From a virus (taxonomy: Duplodnaviria; Caudoviricetes): a stretch of DNA of 40,003 bases. Location: the IMG/VR virus record IMGVR_UViG_3300005611_000073, positions 1 through 40,003 of that record. One strand, 5' to 3'. Shown piece by piece: positions 21,395 through 32,103 of the stretch (its first letter is position 1; each line of letters opens with the position of its first letter). The position numbers and the translations under genes were made by a program. The notes under the pieces are model-generated. The model saw only the letters and a program-made list of their open reading frames with translations, was not told the origin of the DNA and did not search any database.

Positions 21395-22642
21395 ATGCTA
21401 CAATACGTTATTAAACGAAACTCCGAAAAAGAATTATACCAACCTACAAAAATAACCAATGCCGTCCTCAAATCTATGGAAGAGGTAGGTGATGTCAATA
21501 AAGAAATGGCAGAGGACGTGTCGTCAAATGTGACCGTTGAGTTATGGAACGGTGGGATAGATAACCCAACTGTTGATGATATTCACGACTTGGTTGAGAA
21601 CGAGTTAATGAATATGGGACTTAATGATGTAGCAAAATCATATATCCTTTACAGAGACAAACACAGACCAAACGTATTTAACAAAAGAACCAATCTTAAA
21701 CCATACGAATACCCACAGTTGAATGAGTATGTTGATGCGATTAGACATTCATATTGGGTTCATACCGAGTTTAACTTTACATCAGATATTCAAGACTTTA
21801 AAGTAAACTTATCACATAAAGAAAAAACATCAGTACAGAGAGCGATGTTGGCTATATCTCAAATTGAAATAGCGGTTAAAACGTTTTGGGGTAAGATATA
21901 TGATAAGATGCCTAAACCCGAGATTGGAAACGTTGGTGCTACATTTGCAGAATCAGAAGTCAGACACGCAGACGCCTATTCCAACTTAATTAAAGTATTA
22001 GGATTAAACAAAGAGTTTGAAACTCTTATGGAAGTCCCAGCTGTTCGTAAACGAGTTAAGTATTTAGAAAAGTCTATTGCCAATTCAAGTGTATTGGGTA
22101 ATAAAGAATATTTTGAAACCGTTATACTTTTTTCAATGTTTGTAGAAAACGTATCACTCTTTTCTCAATTCTTAGTAATTATGGCGTTCAATAAACATAA
22201 GAATGTTTTAAAAGGAATGAGTAACGCAGTTGAAGCTACATCTAAAGAAGAACGAATTCACGCAGAGTTCGGGTTTGATTTAGTCAATCTAATTAAATCA
22301 GAAAATCCAAGTTGGTGGACAGAGGAATTAGTGTCTGACATTGTTGATGCTACCATTGATGCATATGACGCAGAGTCCGACATAGTAGAATGGATGTTTG
22401 AGGAAGGTGATTTGGACTTCCTCACCAAAGACGAAACTTTAGAATTCATCAAAGACCGATTCAATAGGTCACTAGAAAGTATTGGCATTGATGGGATTTT
22501 TAAAGTAAATGAACAGTTATTAGAAAATACTGAATGGTTTGATGATGAAATATTAGCAACCAAACACACAGACTTCTTTAACAAAAGAAGTATCAATTAT
22601 TCCAAACGACAAAAGTCTATTACATCAGACGATTTATTTTAA
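21395..22642 (+). CDS. nrdB: Ribonucleotide reductase beta subunit with N-terminal ATP cone
   Basis: VIKRN...IHDLVENELM...AKSYILYR ATP cone; EVRHADAY, VENVSLF, EERIH; DFF C-terminus. Confidence 0.92.
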   Translation: MLQYVIKRNSEKELYQPTKITNAVLKSMEEVGDVNKEMAEDVSSNVTVELWNGGIDNPTVDDIHDLVENELMNMGLNDVAKSYILYRDKHRPNVFNKRTNLKPYEYPQLNEYVDAIRHSYWVHTEFNFTSDIQDFKVNLSHKEKTSVQRAMLAISQIEIAVKTFWGKIYDKMPKPEIGNVGATFAESEVRHADAYSNLIKVLGLNKEFETLMEVPAVRKRVKYLEKSIANSSVLGNKEYFETVILFSMFVENVSLFSQFLVIMAFNKHKNVLKGMSNAVEATSKEERIHAEFGFDLVNLIKSENPSWWTEELVSDIVDATIDAYDAESDIVEWMFEEGDLDFLTKDETLEFIKDRFNRSLESIGIDGIFKVNEQLLENTEWFDDEILATKHTDFFNKRSINYSKRQKSITSDDLF

Positions 22643-22662
22643 CAATTTAATTATTACATACG

Positions 22663-24369
22663 ATGAGTGAACGAAAACCATTTGAATGGGTGACAGAAGA
22701 ATCTATAACCTTTTTACAACGAGGATATTTAAGTGAAGGTGAGTCTGCAAACGAAAGAATAAAAACTATTGCACAACACGCCGAAAAGATATTAGGTATT
22801 GAAGGATACGCTGATAAATTTTATGATTATATGGGTAAAGGTTGGTATTCTCTATCTTCACCTGTGTGGGCTAATTTTGGTAAAAAGAGAGGTTTACCTG
22901 TTAGTTGTTTTGGTTCAAACGTACAAGATAATATTGAGTCCATACTTTATACATCAGCAGAAGTTGGTGAAATGAGCAAGATGGGCGGTGGGACATCAGG
23001 TTATTTTGGAAACATCAGAGGTAGAGGTACACCTGTAACTGATAATGGACTTGCACCCGGCGCCGTACATTTTATGAATTTGTTTGAAGCGGTGGTAGAT
23101 AACATCTCACAAGGAGCAACTCGTAGAGGTAGATTCTCACCTTATTTACCAATTGAACACCCCGATGTAATGGAGTTTTTAGATATTGGAACAGAAGGTG
23201 CTCCTATTCAAGATTTAACCCACGCCGTTACCGTAACCGATAAGTTTATGGAAGAAATGATTGGTGGTGATGAGGAGAAACGTGCGAGATGGGCTAAAGT
23301 AATTCAACGAAGAGGTGAGATTGGGTATCCGTACATTATGTTCCACGACACGATGAACAAAAATACTGTTGATGTGTATAAGGATAAAGGAGCAACAATC
23401 TATAACTCTAACCTATGTTCTGAGATTGCCCTTCATAACTCAGAAGAAGAATCATTCGTATGTGTACTTTCCTCAATGAACTTATTACATTACGATGAAT
23501 GGAAGGACACAGATGCAGTAGAAGTTCTTACTTTCTTTTTAGACGCAGTCAACGAAGAGTTTGTCACAAAATTAGAACAAATACGTGACAACGGAACTAA
23601 AGAGGGTAGACGTGCTTTTGACTTTATGGAGAAATCTTATAACTTTGCTAAAAGACAACGAGCATTAGGTTTAGGTGTATTGGGTTGGCATTCTTTGTTA
23701 CAATCCAAAGGACTTCCATTTGATACAAGAGAAACTGCACGATTAAATGTAGAGGTGTTTAAATTGATACAAGAAAAATCATATAAAGCATCAGAAGAAC
23801 TAGCAAGAATGTTTGGTGAACCTGAATACTTAGTTGGGTATGGTAGAAGAAACGTTACTCTTAATGCAATTGCACCGACAACTTCATCAGCATTTATATT
23901 AGGTCAAGTTTCACAATCCATTGAACCCTTATTTAGTAACTGTTATGTAAAAGATTTAGCAAAAATGAAAGTAACAGTTAAGAATCCCGTTCTTAAAAAA
24001 CTATTACAAGATTTAGGTAAAGATACCAAAGATGTTTGGAATAGTATTAAAGAACAAGATGGGTCGGTTCAACATTTAGACTTCTTAACAGATGAACAAA
24101 AAGATGTATTTAGAACGTTTGCAGAAATCAACCAATCATCTATCATCAACCAAGCCGCAATTAGACAAGATTTCATTGACCAATCACAATCGTTGAACTT
24201 AATGATTTCACCTGATATGCCAACTAAAGATGTAAATAAGTTATTGATAGACGCGTGGAAGTTAGGAGTAAAAACCCTATACTACCAACACTCAATGAAC
24301 TCAGCACAGGCATTTGCTAGAAAGAAACTTAATATGAATGATTTGGTTTGTATTGCATGTGAGGGTTAA
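22663..24369 (+). CDS. nrdA: Ribonucleotide reductase alpha subunit (short, no ATP cone)
   Basis: SCF, GGGTS, SNLCSEI, IAPTTSS, KTLYY, C-terminal CIAC. Confidence 0.95.
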   Translation: MSERKPFEWVTEESITFLQRGYLSEGESANERIKTIAQHAEKILGIEGYADKFYDYMGKGWYSLSSPVWANFGKKRGLPVSCFGSNVQDNIESILYTSAEVGEMSKMGGGTSGYFGNIRGRGTPVTDNGLAPGAVHFMNLFEAVVDNISQGATRRGRFSPYLPIEHPDVMEFLDIGTEGAPIQDLTHAVTVTDKFMEEMIGGDEEKRARWAKVIQRRGEIGYPYIMFHDTMNKNTVDVYKDKGATIYNSNLCSEIALHNSEEESFVCVLSSMNLLHYDEWKDTDAVEVLTFFLDAVNEEFVTKLEQIRDNGTKEGRRAFDFMEKSYNFAKRQRALGLGVLGWHSLLQSKGLPFDTRETARLNVEVFKLIQEKSYKASEELARMFGEPEYLVGYGRRNVTLNAIAPTTSSAFILGQVSQSIEPLFSNCYVKDLAKMKVTVKNPVLKKLLQDLGKDTKDVWNSIKEQDGSVQHLDFLTDEQKDVFRTFAEINQSSIINQAAIRQDFIDQSQSLNLMISPDMPTKDVNKLLIDAWKLGVKTLYYQHSMNSAQAFARKKLNMNDLVCIACEG

Positions 24370-25293
24370 ATGGATGTATTGGTAGCCAACCATTCATTAT
24401 CAGGTATAGATGGTAGTATTAAATACAACTATTCTATTATAGAAGAATTATTACGTAGAGGTCATAGTGTAGATGGGTTCGGTGTTGGTAATGATGGTGG
24501 TGGGTCTACTGTAACAGAACAACGTTTAAGAGAAATGAATGTACCGTTGTACATAGGAGCACCACCAACTAAAAAGTATGATTTAATATTATCGTCAGGT
24601 AAAACATCAATATATCATCTTGACAGGGTTGATGATATTTGTATACACACGAACCACGGTATTCATGTAGAAGAAGAAGAACCATTTGCACACCCTCTGA
24701 TAAAACAATTAGTATCAGTAAGTAAAGAAGTAAAAGATTTTACAGCGAGTAAAGGGTTTACGAGTGAAATAATATACAACGGTATAAACACTAAAACATT
24801 TAAGATAGATAATCCAATAAATAAAAGTTTAAAAAAAATATTATCATTGACACATAATCAATTACTAAATGATAGGTTGAGTAACATATGTAATAAGCTT
24901 GGAATAGAGTTTATATATAATCATAAAAAAGATAATCCTGTATTTGATATTGAGAAAAAAATAAACGAAGTAGATTTAGTTATAACTATTGGTCGTGGTG
25001 TTTACGAGGCTATGAGTTGTGGGAGAGTTGTTTTTTGTTTAGACAAACGAGAATATGTTGGTGGTGATAGTATTGGTGATGGAATTGTGACTGACGCAAA
25101 TATTAATTATATTATACAAAACAATTGTAGTGGTAGATACACTAATAAAGTATTTACCGACACCGATATCATAGAAGAACTATCAAAGTATGATTACCGT
25201 TTGGGTGAATTTGGTAGAGAGTATGTAACAACAAATTTAACAATAGAACAGTCCGTGGATAAATACTTAAACCTTTATGAACAATTTAGATAA
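24370..25293 (+). CDS. GT-B (family 4-like) glycosyltransferase
   Basis: RRGHSV, IYNGIN, DLVITIGRGVYEAMSCG. Confidence 0.8.
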   Translation: MDVLVANHSLSGIDGSIKYNYSIIEELLRRGHSVDGFGVGNDGGGSTVTEQRLREMNVPLYIGAPPTKKYDLILSSGKTSIYHLDRVDDICIHTNHGIHVEEEEPFAHPLIKQLVSVSKEVKDFTASKGFTSEIIYNGINTKTFKIDNPINKSLKKILSLTHNQLLNDRLSNICNKLGIEFIYNHKKDNPVFDIEKKINEVDLVITIGRGVYEAMSCGRVVFCLDKREYVGGDSIGDGIVTDANINYIIQNNCSGRYTNKVFTDTDIIEELSKYDYRLGEFGREYVTTNLTIEQSVDKYLNLYEQFR

Positions 25294-26320
25294 ACAATAT
25301 CAAAACTTACTCACAACTATTTTAGAATTTGGAATAAATAAATCAGACCGAACAGGTACAGGTACTAAATCTATATTCGGTTACACCATTCGTCATAAGA
25401 TGAAAGAAGGATTTCCACTTCTTACTACAAAGAAAATGGCATTCAAAACAATCGTAACAGAATTACTTTGGTTCTTACGAGGTGATACCAACATTAAGTA
25501 TCTAGTTGATAACGGATGTAATATATGGAACGGTGATGCTTTTAAAAACTTTAAAACAAAGTTTAATGGCCCTGCTATTGCAAAAGGAAAACTATTTGAT
25601 GAGAAAGTATTTATTGAACTAATCAAAACAGATGATGAGTTTGCTAGAGATTGGGGAGACTTAGGCCCAATATACGGTAAACAATGGAGAAAATGGGATG
25701 GTATAGACCAAATAGGTGAACTTATCCATAATCTAAAAACAAACCCTGATAGTAGAAGATTGATGGTCAATGCTTGGAATGTTGGAGACTTAGACCAAAT
25801 GGTTCTACCACCTTGTCATTATGGATTTCAAGTTTATACAAGAGAGTTGAACCTAGCTGAAAGATTCACTTGGTATGGAAACAAAATAGGTTCACATATG
25901 CACCACGACCACATTGAACAAGAGATGAATGAGAATAATGTACCGACACGTGCAATTTCACTAATGTGGAATCAACGCTCAGTAGATACATTCTTAGGAC
26001 TTCCATTTAATATTGCATCTTATGGATTGTTACTACAACTGATTGCAAATGAAGTAAATATGATACCTGATGAATTAATTGGTAATTTGGGTGATACTCA
26101 TTTATATTCCAATCACATAGAACAGGCAAAAGAACAAATAAGTAGAACCTCATTTGACTTACCACAACTTTCGTATTTAGATGAGTATCATTATTTAAAT
26201 GATAAGGAATTAGTAGGAGATATACCCTTTAGTAAAAAAATTGAAGAATTTAGACCCGATTTCTTCATAATTAAAGACTACCAATCACACCCAACAATTA
26301 AAGCACCTTTATCTAATTAA
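25277..26320 (+). CDS. thyA: Thymidylate synthase
   Basis: DRTGTGT, ELLWFL, YGKQWR, LPPCH, QRSVDTFLGLPFNIASY, GDTHLY. Confidence 0.97.
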   Translation: MNNLDKQYQNLLTTILEFGINKSDRTGTGTKSIFGYTIRHKMKEGFPLLTTKKMAFKTIVTELLWFLRGDTNIKYLVDNGCNIWNGDAFKNFKTKFNGPAIAKGKLFDEKVFIELIKTDDEFARDWGDLGPIYGKQWRKWDGIDQIGELIHNLKTNPDSRRLMVNAWNVGDLDQMVLPPCHYGFQVYTRELNLAERFTWYGNKIGSHMHHDHIEQEMNENNVPTRAISLMWNQRSVDTFLGLPFNIASYGLLLQLIANEVNMIPDELIGNLGDTHLYSNHIEQAKEQISRTSFDLPQLSYLDEYHYLNDKELVGDIPFSKKIEEFRPDFFIIKDYQSHPTIKAPLSN

Positions 26321-26324
26321 ATAC

Positions 26325-26353
26325 TTGACATTGATATTTATTTTTTGTAACTT
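26325..26353 (+). promoter_or_regulatory. Promoter for the small ORF + tRNA operon
   Basis: TTGACA-N17-TAACTT; predicted +1 near 26360. Confidence 0.7.
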
Positions 26354-26359
26354 TATATT

Positions 26360-26515
26360 ATGACACGTAAAAATAAATATCAACAAAAATCAACTTGGTC
26401 TCCTATGACAATGGGTGAAGTTAGACATCACATCGGTAAGAAGATGACTCAACAAACTCACACGTCCAAAAAGATATACAGTAGAAAGAGAAAACATAAG
26501 AAAAAAGAAATATAG
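26360..26515 (+). CDS. 51-aa basic ArfA-like protein (not in the ORF track); stop codon overlaps tRNA-Met
   Basis: MTRKNKYQQKSTWSPMTMGEVRHHIGKKMTQQTHTSKKIYSRKRKHKKKEI; TAG at 26513-26515. Confidence 0.65.
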   Translation: MTRKNKYQQKSTWSPMTMGEVRHHIGKKMTQQTHTSKKIYSRKRKHKKKEI

Positions 26516-26588
26516 CGGGGCAGAGCGTGTGGTGTTCGCCAACGGTCTCATAAGCCGTTAATCGTGGGTTCAACTCCCACCCCCGCCA
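26514..26588 (+). tRNA. tRNA-Met(CAT), atypical, initiator-like
   Basis: GCGGGG/CCCCGC acceptor with an A1:C72 mismatch; ACGGT-CTCATAA-GCCGT; GTGGG-TTCAACT-CCCAC. Confidence 0.85.
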
Positions 26589-26595
26589 CTCAGAT

Positions 26596-26667
26596 GTTCG
26601 GTTCATCTAGTGGTTAGGATGCCACCCTTTCACGGTGGTCACAGGGGTTCAAATCCCCTACCGAATA
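26596..26667 (+). tRNA. tRNA-Glu(TTC)
   Basis: GTTCGGT/ACCGAAT; CCACC-CTTTCAC-GGTGG; AGGGG-TTCAAAT-CCCCT. Confidence 0.93.
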
Positions 26668-26672
26668 CAAAT

Positions 26673-26746
26673 GGCTCGGTAGTTCAATTGGTTAGAGCAC
26701 TTGCCTGTCACGCAAGAAGTTGAGGGTTCAAGTCCCTTCCGAGTCG
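26673..26746 (+). tRNA. tRNA-Asp(GTC)
   Basis: GGCTCGG/CCGAGTC; CTTGC-CTGTCAC-GCAAG; GAGGG-TTCAAGT-CCCTT. Confidence 0.95.
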
Positions 26747-26748
26747 CT

Positions 26749-27103
26749 TATATATAAAAGTGGTGATGTTCTTTGACATAAAAAAAGGAGAAAACATATG
26801 GAAACAATAGCATTTGTTCAAGGTATACTTTCGGTCATCGGAATTTTGATGGTTGGGGGTATGGTTTGGGTAATAAGTAAAATACTAGATTTAAAATCTT
26901 ATATAGACGGTCTACAATTACACGTAGATAATCTTGAAAGAGATATACATACAGAAGTTCAAATTCAAAATCAGAATTTGAAAGAAACCATAGAACAAAC
27001 ATACCGAGATATGGACTCACGCTTTGATAAGTTTGAAACCCGTATTTCACAAAAACAATTACTTAAAGATTAACTAATAAAGAACATCACCTTTTTATAT
27101 ATA
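26749..27103. repeat. Imperfect ~25-bp inverted repeat enclosing ORF 26798..27073
   Basis: TATATATAAAA-GT-GGTGATGTTCTTT (26749-26774) vs AAAGAACATCACC-T-TTTTATATATA (27079-27103). Confidence 0.85.
26798..27073 (+). CDS. Single-TM coiled-coil protein
   Basis: AAGGAG SD; N-terminal TM then heptad pattern. Confidence 0.75.
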   Translation: METIAFVQGILSVIGILMVGGMVWVISKILDLKSYIDGLQLHVDNLERDIHTEVQIQNQNLKETIEQTYRDMDSRFDKFETRISQKQLLKD

Positions 27104-27129
27104 CAAATATAAATATATACATATATACT

Positions 27130-27318
27130 ATGAGTTACATTATTGTCAAATACGTAAAAATAAACAACCAAGAACTACCCGTTATTCTTATTGACGAGTT
27201 CGGTGAAGTATTAACTTTTGGTGGTGAAGAGGATGCAGAAGATTACAAAAAGCTATTTCAAAATAATTCTGATTCAGGACACCGATACGAAGTAAAACAC
27301 GTTAGTGAAAAAATTTAA
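27130..27318 (+). CDS. Hypothetical protein
   Basis: Clean ORF between the inverted repeat and the next promoter. Confidence 0.65.
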   Translation: MSYIIVKYVKINNQELPVILIDEFGEVLTFGGEEDAEDYKKLFQNNSDSGHRYEVKHVSEKI

Positions 27319-27327
27319 AAAAAAGTC

Positions 27328-27388
27328 TTGACATTGATATGGGGATTCAGTATCTTTCTTACGTAATGATAATTAACCCCTTAATCAT
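27328..27388 (+). promoter_or_regulatory. Early promoter + leader (variant)
   Basis: TTGACA-N17-TATCTT...AACCCCTTAATCATATG. Confidence 0.8.
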
Positions 27389-29332
27389 ATGAACTCACAA
27401 TTATTCTCTTCTTATTGGTTAGATGATTCACATATGACAGATTTGTCCACTAAAGACAAAGACCCTGTTAAACTAGCCAAATACCAACGAGTTATTTCAA
27501 ACTTTACTCGTATCCTAACTAAACAATCAATACCTGTTGAATATAGAAACTCAGGTGACTCTTATACTGACTCTCATAAGATTGTCATTGGGTCTACGAT
27601 TGATGAAAAAAACTTTGATAGTGTTGTGGGTCTTGCTCTTCACGAAGCTTCTCATATTAAACTAACTGACTTTACTATCTTACCTAATCTATTTGATAAG
27701 ATACAACAGATGGGGTTACTAACAGATGAGTTACGTGAACAGTTACTTATCTACCGTGAAGAGTTTAGAGGGTTATTAAACTACGTAGAAGATAGACGGA
27801 TTGACCGTTATGTTTATACCACATCTCCTGGCTATAAAGGGTATTACCAATCTCTTTATGATAGATACTTCAATGACAAAGTTATTGACAAAATGTTACT
27901 ATCATCTGAATATAGAGATAAAACAATGGAGTCTTACTTCAGTAGAATTATCAACTTGGTCAATGAGAATAGTGACTTAACCGCCCTTCCTGATTTACGA
28001 ACTATTCATAATCTAATTTTCTCTGAAGTTCCTAAGATGAAATCAACCACCGATGCCCTTACGGTAACAGTTAAGGTATTTGAGTTGATTATGAAAAACA
28101 TCTTAACTGATGAACAAGAACCTGATACTGAAAATGATGAGTCAGGTGAAGAAGAACAATCAGATGAGAACAAAGAAAACGGTATTGAAAAAAGTGAGTC
28201 AGGTAATAGTACAGGTGGTGACTCTCCTAATTCAGACTCAAGTGAAACTCAAGATGGTGATGACTCAGGTGAAAAAGAATTAGAGGAATTAACTATCAAT
28301 CAAAAACAACAGCTTCAAAAGAAAATACAGAAACAAAAGAAGTTCTTAGACGGTGATATTACCAAAGGTAAACTATCCAAAGAACTATCACACACAGTAA
28401 AGTCTTTACAGGGTAGTGATTCTGATGTTGTTGAGGTTGAATTTGAGGACAGATACGGTGATAAAGAAAAGACAAATGTGATTGTCTTACGTGGCCTATC
28501 GGAATCTAACTTTGATTTCTTCTACAATATGATGAATAGAAGAAGTGAGGGGGCTCACGATGATGAGGTTAGAAAAGGTATTTTACTCGGTAAGAAGTTG
28601 GGTAAAAAACTTCAAATCAGAAACCGTGAAACTCAAACTGATATTAACCGACAAAAAAAGGGACGTATTGAAAAAAGAAGATTACACGCCATTGGTGCGG
28701 GTGACTATAACATCTTTAACCAAAGTATTATAGAAAAACATTCAGATGCGTTTCTTCACTTGTCTATTGATGGTAGTGGTTCTATGGCGGGTACTAAGTT
28801 CAAAGACTCTTTGATGTCCGCCGTTGCAATTGCACAGATGGGGTCAATGACCAACATTGATGTTCAAATTTCATTTAGATATAGTGAAACGGTTGGTCAA
28901 CAGGAAAGGGCGTTTATGTGGGTCGCGTATGACTCACGTAAACAGTCAATGAAAGACATCAAAAAATACTTTGGGAGATTCTATCACAATGGTCTAACTC
29001 CTGAAGGTCTGTGTTTTGAATCCATTATGAAACAACTACCCATAGGTAGTGACGCTCTCAAAACCTATTTTATTAACTACTCAGACGGTGCTCCTTACTT
29101 TAAAGAGTACGGTGGAGATGGTGCGGTTCAACAGACAAAAAAACAAGTTGACACGTTGAGAAATAATGGTTATACTGTTCTATCGTTCTTTATTACCGAT
29201 GACGATTATGTGAATGAAAGAGAAAATTCTCAATTCAAAACTATGTATGGTAAAGACGCCTCGTCAATTGACCCGACATCTTTAACAAAACTTACCAAAC
29301 AACTACAAAATATGTTCTTAAATGAAAAATAA
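27389..29332 (+). CDS. HExxH + acidic linker + vWA (MIDAS) protein, CobT-like
   Basis: LHEASH, NYVEDRRID, D/E/S-rich linker, IDGSGSM, SDGAP. Confidence 0.85.
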   Translation: MNSQLFSSYWLDDSHMTDLSTKDKDPVKLAKYQRVISNFTRILTKQSIPVEYRNSGDSYTDSHKIVIGSTIDEKNFDSVVGLALHEASHIKLTDFTILPNLFDKIQQMGLLTDELREQLLIYREEFRGLLNYVEDRRIDRYVYTTSPGYKGYYQSLYDRYFNDKVIDKMLLSSEYRDKTMESYFSRIINLVNENSDLTALPDLRTIHNLIFSEVPKMKSTTDALTVTVKVFELIMKNILTDEQEPDTENDESGEEEQSDENKENGIEKSESGNSTGGDSPNSDSSETQDGDDSGEKELEELTINQKQQLQKKIQKQKKFLDGDITKGKLSKELSHTVKSLQGSDSDVVEVEFEDRYGDKEKTNVIVLRGLSESNFDFFYNMMNRRSEGAHDDEVRKGILLGKKLGKKLQIRNRETQTDINRQKKGRIEKRRLHAIGAGDYNIFNQSIIEKHSDAFLHLSIDGSGSMAGTKFKDSLMSAVAIAQMGSMTNIDVQISFRYSETVGQQERAFMWVAYDSRKQSMKDIKKYFGRFYHNGLTPEGLCFESIMKQLPIGSDALKTYFINYSDGAPYFKEYGGDGAVQQTKKQVDTLRNNGYTVLSFFITDDDYVNERENSQFKTMYGKDASSIDPTSLTKLTKQLQNMFLNEK

Positions 29333-31776: not shown

Positions 31777-32103
31777 ATGACTAGAGCACGTTTATTTGAT
31801 GACCTATTTGATGTGGTATTTACGCCAGAAAGATATTCAACAACAGAACTTTCCGATGACTTGGATTTACATATTCAGGTGCCGGGTTGTGATGAAAAAG
31901 ACGTTGATGTAGAACTTGGTGAAAAAATTATCACAGTCAAAGCAGAAGCATCCGTTGATGGATTTGACTTTACCTTAAATAAAAACTATTTTATCCCTAA
32001 CAACGTAGATAGAGATAATATTAAAGCTACCGTACAAAACGGTTTACTATCTATCTCGTTGAAGAGAAAAGTAGAAAAGTTAAAGGTAAAAAAACTACTC
32101 TAA
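31777..32103 (+). CDS. Small heat shock protein (Hsp20 family)
   Basis: VPG...DVDVE...IP-x2-VD-x3-IKA-x3-NGLLSISL. Confidence 0.88.
   Translation: MTRARLFDDLFDVVFTPERYSTTELSDDLDLHIQVPGCDEKDVDVELGEKIITVKAEASVDGFDFTLNKNYFIPNNVDRDNIKATVQNGLLSISLKRKVEKLKVKKLL

Follow-up and report, generated by a model that had tools for sequence, protein, structure and literature searches.

A phage gene family for short basic proteins with an ArfA-like tail, a few members of which end inside a tRNA gene

The small basic protein encoded directly upstream of a tRNA cluster in the window (the whole 40,003-nt stretch analysed here, a linear 40-kb piece taken from a virus record that is 22% complete) belongs to what is likely an ArfA-tailed phage family. 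Judged from its sequence, the chances are about even that this short protein works in the manner of ArfA and BrfA, being encoded in a ready-shortened form and normally terminated, with the overlap of its stop codon with a tRNA gene likely incidental; its predicted release-factor-dependent rescue activity is likewise put at an even chance. The preliminary description had proposed that the phage deletes the stop codon through RNase P processing of its own tRNA and thereby senses tmRNA capacity. Such a control circuit is not supported by the conservation of the junction, and comparison with control genes likely explains the overlap as ordinary packing.

Table 1. Features of the ORF and tRNA cluster in the window
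Feature	Position	Strand	Basis or remark
Thymidylate synthase ThyA	25277..26320	+	Upstream neighbour, context; PF00303, E 2e-91
Predicted Bacteroidota sigmaA-type promoter	26325..26355	+	Pattern match; box position per PMC9723704; kept in closest kin
51-aa basic ORF, DUF7230-related, ArfA-like tail; also 5' leader of the tRNA cluster	26360..26515	+	Homologs, alignment, Pfam
TAG stop codon (tRNA positions -1, +1 and +2)	26513..26515	+	ORF and ARAGORN tRNA limits
Predicted RNase P cut	between 26513 and 26514	+	Cut site from general knowledge of RNase P
tRNA-Met(CAT), initiator-like, atypical D arm, C at position 8, no encoded CCA	26514..26589	+	ARAGORN; Rfam RF00005, 30.6 bits
tRNA-Glu(TTC)	26596..26668	+	ARAGORN, Rfam
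tRNA-Asp(GTC)	26673..26747	+	ARAGORN, Rfam

The features of the locus are collected in Table 1. The earlier claim that the TAG shares the first two nucleotides of tRNA-Met was borne out: ARAGORN starts the tRNA within the codon, and the acceptor stem, A1.C72 followed by six G-C pairs, sets +1 at A26514. RNase P cuts at tRNA position +1, and the leader is predicted to end in ...GAA AUA U after such a cut. Rfam places the start at 26515, one base later than ARAGORN; the stop codon is incomplete whichever of the two starts is cut. This tRNA-Met is atypical and scarcely exceeds the Rfam cut-off of 29 bits. Of two traits of bacterial initiator tRNAs it has the 1:72 mismatch; in place of the other, an anticodon stem with three G-C pairs at its base, it has two G-C pairs and one U.G. 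The initiator-like tRNA-Met of close kin keeps the acceptor stem and anticodon arm, its D and T arms being wholly different, and in one relative (L175) a copy missed by ARAGORN lies about 100 nt past the stop codon. Genes of the window read normally under table 11, and an alternative genetic code was rejected. Around the cluster (window 21395-26320, 27389-29332, 31777-32103) there are genes likely for class I ribonucleotide reductase subunits, together with those for a glycosyltransferase-like protein, ThyA, a VWA-like protein and Hsp20. An AT-rich repeat of the TATATA(C/A) type at 27070-27130, situated 5' of a 62-aa gene and found also 5' of many tRNA genes in relatives (L118, L128, L236 and others), is possibly a phage promoter.

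The promoter preceding the ORF was recognised as TTG at 26325-27 (the -33 box), a 20-nt spacer and TAACTTTA at 26348-55. The same pattern occurs nine times on the + strand of the window, which makes the match weak by itself; it is retained in the closest kin of the ORF. According to the accessible text of PMC9723704, the flavobacterial -7 box of this type sits at -12 to -5, so that the transcription start is predicted at A26360, the A of the ATG, and the mRNA of the ORF is predicted to be leaderless. The preliminary description had likewise postulated a leaderless start, after a -10 box; the start agrees with the present prediction, while a sigma-70 -10 box was rejected as the Bacteroidota-type -7 box fits better. 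The promoter type, together with one homolog in a Flavobacteriales bin, makes Bacteroidota the likely host group. RNA contigs (one RNA run, share 0.04) covered only the thyA end and tRNA-Glu/Asp and none lay on the ORF, which is no evidence either way.

That the 51-aa ORF is a real gene follows from its conservation in 59 homologous protein clusters and 168 loci; the searches gave 36 representatives as well. The loci were drawn from viral contigs (31, then the best 80 of 87) and metagenomes (the best 80 of 352) and gave with the window 119 distinct junctions, 118 of which were counted after one incomplete junction was left out. G19, E20, H23, H24, R42 and K45 are invariant in a 55-sequence alignment, the most conserved part being the stretch before the tail (G19, E20, H23, H24); the tail of the window protein (P0001) reads Y40-x-R42-K43-x-K45-H46-K47. 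The family is almost confined to viral or metagenome contigs: a search of genome contigs matched only two MAG contigs, one of which (L254, of the same extent as viral record L107) is likely phage DNA in a bin. Searches with P0001 found no match in PHROGs or, by tblastn, in GenBank phages; the ESM Atlas returned unnamed clusters and one with 16% DUF7230. No family gene was present within 2.5 kb of 80 thyA relatives. In L088, L096, L135 and others the stop codon lies in a repeated TTAACA motif just 5' of the Bacteroidota-type promoter of the next gene, and this motif sets the last residues of the protein.

The preliminary description had likened the C-terminus to the basic segment of E. coli ArfA lacking its GKG. 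Both parts of this description stand: the Lys-His pair (K45-H46) is present in the window protein and at least 90% conserved in alignment A2, with KH found in 67 of 107 distinct C-termini of family loci, and a GKG(S) segment before Y-x-R is absent from the family alignment. The Pfam ArfA model PF03889 matches neither P0001 nor any of the family members in sets of 55 and 33; the tail resembles residues 30-50 of E. coli ArfA weakly (hhalign probability 2.6%), the family reaches 14.9% against a 10-sequence ArfA alignment, and a PDB search with the family profile (177,635 sequences) returned no ArfA or BrfA chain at E<=10, its sole match being SYF2 at E 5.8. The similarity to ArfA is limited to about 20 K/R-rich residues, and the likeness of the tail may be convergent. 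An AlphaFold monomer model of P0001 is of low confidence (pLDDT 64, pTM 0.19) and contains only a helix at 18-24.

A link between the family and ArfA is provided by DUF7230 (PF23876), because one phage ArfA, that of Pseudoalteromonas phage J2-1, passes both models. This protein is also devoid of GKG, yet it passes PF03889 (41.3 bits, cut-off 25.5) as well as DUF7230 (28.6 bits, cut-off 27). DUF7230 matches 31 of 55 family members at E<=0.5 (best 8.4e-7), the relative P0063 with 32.1 bits and the window protein with 10.7 bits. The family profile aligns with J2-1 ArfA over the tail at an hhalign probability of 83%, which may be inflated by the many K and R residues. The ArfA-like reading is thus favoured by the KH tail, the size of the protein, the DUF7230 bridge and the enrichment before tRNAs, and disfavoured by the failed Pfam ArfA model.

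The features by which ArfA is made from a non-stop message, an internal hairpin and a hydrophobic, unstable full-length tail, are not found in the family. The hydropathy of the last ten residues has a median of -2.12 (ArfA, +1.27), so that no hydrophobic tail is seen; folding near the stop codon is weaker (median -7.2, range up to -20.5, versus -31.3 kcal/mol in arfA); and there are no terminator-like sites in 26200-27400, hence no intrinsic terminator inside the ORF.

The same kind of tail is carried by many other small phage proteins. A scan for the tail motif that was blind to the family returned 120 of some 4,300 IMG/VR stretches (an estimate from 2 of 64 parts); 115 of 117 distinct matches lie in small ORFs, near the C-terminus, the ORFs having a median length of 43 aa and ending a median of 5 residues past the motif. 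None of these 115 genes ends inside a tRNA, and their loci hold no tRNA on the same strand. The tail K-K-x-Y-x-R-K-x-K-H-K is common to phage proteins of 36-80 aa (L511-L630) with at least 19 different N-termini, some of which match ArfA or DUF7230 weakly. Of 88 small phage genes of the GKG type, 3 have their stop codon within a tRNA and another 12 have it shortly upstream of one. Nine phage proteins tested pass PF03889, those of J2-1 and RXM among them; ArfA-like ORFs passing it in phages RsoM2USA, pf16, Cr30 and CRP-212 (L498, L500, L502, L503) are unannotated or annotated on another strand or in another frame. In sequence, most phage versions resemble an ArfA that has been trimmed in advance to its active length and has an ordinary stop codon. 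Phage ArfAs are known as annotations named from sequence, as far as the accessible parts of PMC8953757 and PMC12753301 go, HTVC027P gp30 being assigned an ArfA domain by its paper; the accessible part of PMC6514570 does not mention phages. In the literature covered, mostly open-access text, no phage ArfA had been put to the test, DUF7230 had neither a paper nor a described function, and removal of a stop codon by RNase P was not described.

The stop codon lies inside a tRNA in 5 of the 118 distinct family junctions, with two separate origins: the window group with L174 (tRNA-Met), and L121, L125 and L127, in which the TAG occupies nt 8-10 of tRNA-Ala. In 15 further junctions a tRNA begins 1-40 nt past the stop codon, 96 have none, and 2 are too short to tell. 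The check for homologs that also end in tRNAs therefore went against the preliminary description: 113 of 118 junctions (two of them with less than 120 nt of downstream DNA) have no same-strand tRNA holding the stop codon, including those of four sisters. In the phylogenetic tree the two overlap groups stand apart, and the window pair falls in a well-supported clade (100/97) with four junctions that have their own stops: L175 (94% identical), with a TAA directly before tRNA-Thr; L176 (94%), with no tRNA; L085 (89%), with tRNA-Glu 9 nt downstream; and L177 (70%), with no tRNA. The DNA from the family gene to the next conserved gene, which was found in four of seven kin, measures 32, 124, 292 or 614 nt and holds different tRNAs or none. 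The overlap in the window looks recent and seems to follow the turnover of this cassette. The three tRNA-Ala loci are diverged, with tails differing by whole codons, and the overlap persists in them.

The rate of overlap was compared with that of unrelated genes upstream of phage tRNA-Ala genes, a scan for which gave at least 120 matches, 94 of them distinct and with enough upstream DNA. A non-family ORF ends inside the tRNA at 12 of these 94 loci, or at 10 when two ORFs starting in another tRNA are set aside (L409, possibly a third such ORF, was kept); thus, in about one in ten sampled phage tRNA-Ala genes the upstream ORF ends inside the tRNA. With 28 control ORFs ending 1-40 nt upstream of tRNA-Ala, the control rate is 10/38. 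Given a tRNA neighbour, the family overlaps it in 5 of 20 cases (Fisher p=1.0 against the control), or 8 of 35 with GKG-type genes added (p=0.79), a comparison that has little power owing to few independent events, mechanical ORF calls and related phages, and that would allow a modest enrichment. An overlapping ORF is found at 6 of 75 distinct tRNA-Met loci, several of them doubtful, and 15 of 78 tRNA-Met genes start with A; in L302 the same T|AG junction on tRNA-Met is formed by an unrelated reading frame of 124 or more open codons. Per gene, overlap is more frequent in the family (4% versus 2 of 850 ORFs in four related records), an excess owed to the position of the gene before tRNAs: a family gene is the one preceding the tRNA in 20 of 118 junctions, as against about 9 of the 850 ORFs. 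Since close relatives keep their own stops and unrelated genes overlap about as often, the overlap likely arose incidentally, from the tight packing of a tRNA cassette that changes fast.

Other phage genes run into tRNAs as well. A gene for a DUF6580 membrane protein (PF20221) ends 22 nt inside tRNA-Glu in eight diverged junctions of the phages that carry the family (L116:1646-2143, L120, L132, L193, L230, L233, L236 and L239), an overlap better conserved than that of the family; in L116 it directly follows the family gene. An HNH-like gene (L410, L474, L494) runs into tRNA-Ala in two different frames, stopping at nt 10 or at nt 23.

In the mechanism proposed for the window, host RNA polymerase would start at the ATG, and one RNA would be both mRNA and tRNA leader. 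Ribosomes reaching the UAG on the uncut precursor would release the complete 51-aa protein. Because the last two bases of the TAG are nt 1-2 of the tRNA and RNase P cuts there, a stop-less leader RNA is probably made; it would be 154 nt long, and ribosomes would stall on it and be cleared by tmRNA. The cut would shorten the useful life of the message and could not switch the gene off, since translation of the uncut precursor yields the identical 51-aa product, polar end included, so that RNase P would only limit the productive time; translation into the acceptor stem and folding of the tRNA would compete. By analogy with ArfA and BrfA, the tail would insert into the vacant mRNA channel of host ribosomes that have stalled and bring in a release factor of the host, and ribosomes would stay free during infection.

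The view that RNase P removes the stop codon on purpose, with tmRNA tagging the product and the ArfA-like protein accumulating only when trans-translation is overloaded, appears quite improbable. By geometry, a cut at +1 of the tRNA does leave the leader without a stop codon, the overlap has two origins in the family besides the three cases among GKG-type genes, and P0064 and P0088, judged by eye, seem to run on into a tRNA. None of 19 related records, most of them incomplete, has a tmRNA of its own over the cut-off, which would leave host tmRNA as the sensor, and both ArfA and BrfA are controlled via non-stop mRNA (accessible parts of PMC8012679 and PMC6881298). What speaks against a selected circuit is the rarity of the overlap and the own stops of the sisters, the equal conditional rate in unrelated genes, the T|AG junction of the unrelated L302 ORF, the lack of any tRNA overlap among the tail-motif genes and the atypical tRNA-Met. 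Control of ArfA, in the accessible text of PMC8012679, closes both routes, the product of the shortened message being tagged and the full-length protein being unstable; here the uncut precursor encodes the same protein with no degron or destabilising tail. The broader proposal of a large superfamily of ArfA-tailed phage rescue factors in which several lineages were independently wired as tRNA-operon leaders, RNase P deleting the stop codon, is judged equally improbable.

Two further readings concern the protein itself. The basic tail might bind the mRNA channel with no release factor involved, plugging it, competing with tmRNA-SmpB or modulating translation; this is unlikely, although only the tail is common to the 19 groups of tail-bearing proteins with differing N-termini and the family has no ArfA profile match, because conservation is highest in the stretch preceding the tail, a sign that there may be a second partner, and some tail-bearing phage proteins match ArfA upstream of the tail too. 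It is also rather unlikely that the protein has no role at the ribosome and is one of the generic small phage proteins that bind nucleic acids, its likeness to ArfA being K/R-rich convergence. The low hhalign scores, the low-confidence model with one short helix and the 40 of 107 C-termini devoid of the KH pattern would agree with this, while the fixed spacing K-x-x-Y-x-R-K-x-K-H near the C-terminus of many unrelated small ORFs, the DUF7230/ArfA double match of J2-1 and the place of the gene before tRNA genes speak against it.

If the protein does release stalled ribosomes, as the preferred reading of an ArfA- or BrfA-like function predicts, it would serve as a rescue factor, dependent on a release factor, in a host group that yielded no ArfA in a search of 151 Flavobacteriales genomes. 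DUF7230 was likewise absent from the 151 genomes, but the control of that search also matched nowhere; the RF-1 domain was found in none of 15 related records, most of them incomplete. Such an activity would also assign a function to DUF7230, as well as to the thousands of tiny, unannotated phage genes that share this tail. Were the RNase P wiring true, it would constitute a third route to a tmRNA-sensing switch, beside RNase III cutting and internal termination, and Bacteroidota phages would gain a rescue factor of the release-factor-dependent kind, apparently missing from their hosts. Phage tRNA clusters may produce stop-less leaders as a matter of course, and this could explain why phages have such a rescue factor beside them.

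The sharing of a stop codon between a gene and the start of a tRNA has a parallel in animal mitochondria, in which mRNAs with incomplete stop codons are cut out by tRNA processing; the terminal U of the window leader plus A-tailing would likewise give UAA. Unlike the mitochondrial cases, the leaders of the tRNA-Ala loci end in AU or AA, which A-tailing would not complete, so this is not a family trait and was rejected as its mechanism. With E. coli ArfA (YhdL, PF03889) the family shares a small basic protein in which a short helix is followed by an extended basic tail Y-x-R-K-x-K-H, and a length near that of the active shortened form of ArfA; it differs in failing the Pfam model, in its N-terminal half, and in having no GKG, hydrophobic C-terminal extension or strong hairpin. 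ArfA recruits RF2 to non-stop ribosomes, and its loss is synthetically lethal with that of ssrA. Similar in layout are the phage ArfAs of J2-1 (ATN93434.1), Citromicrobium phage RXM (gp10) and pelagiphage HTVC027P (gp30), likewise short genes with their own stop soon past the basic tail; those of J2-1 and RXM pass PF03889, and that of HTVC027P has the domain by its paper, unlike this family with its likely Bacteroidota host. DUF7230 is matched by many family members, P0063 exceeding its cut-off, whereas the window protein stays under it. BrfA (YqkK) of Bacillus subtilis, whose N-terminal helices are accompanied by a beta-strand joining the RF2 sheet, also has a basic C-terminus with Lys-His, a pair whose contact to 16S rRNA is common to ArfA and BrfA (accessible parts of PMC6881298 and PMC8012679); the family, unlike BrfA, has no profile match to solved chains and no internal terminator and is almost only viral or metagenomic. 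As described in the accessible text of PMC6881298, BrfA has no sequence homology to ArfA and is thus a precedent for a convergent rescue factor.
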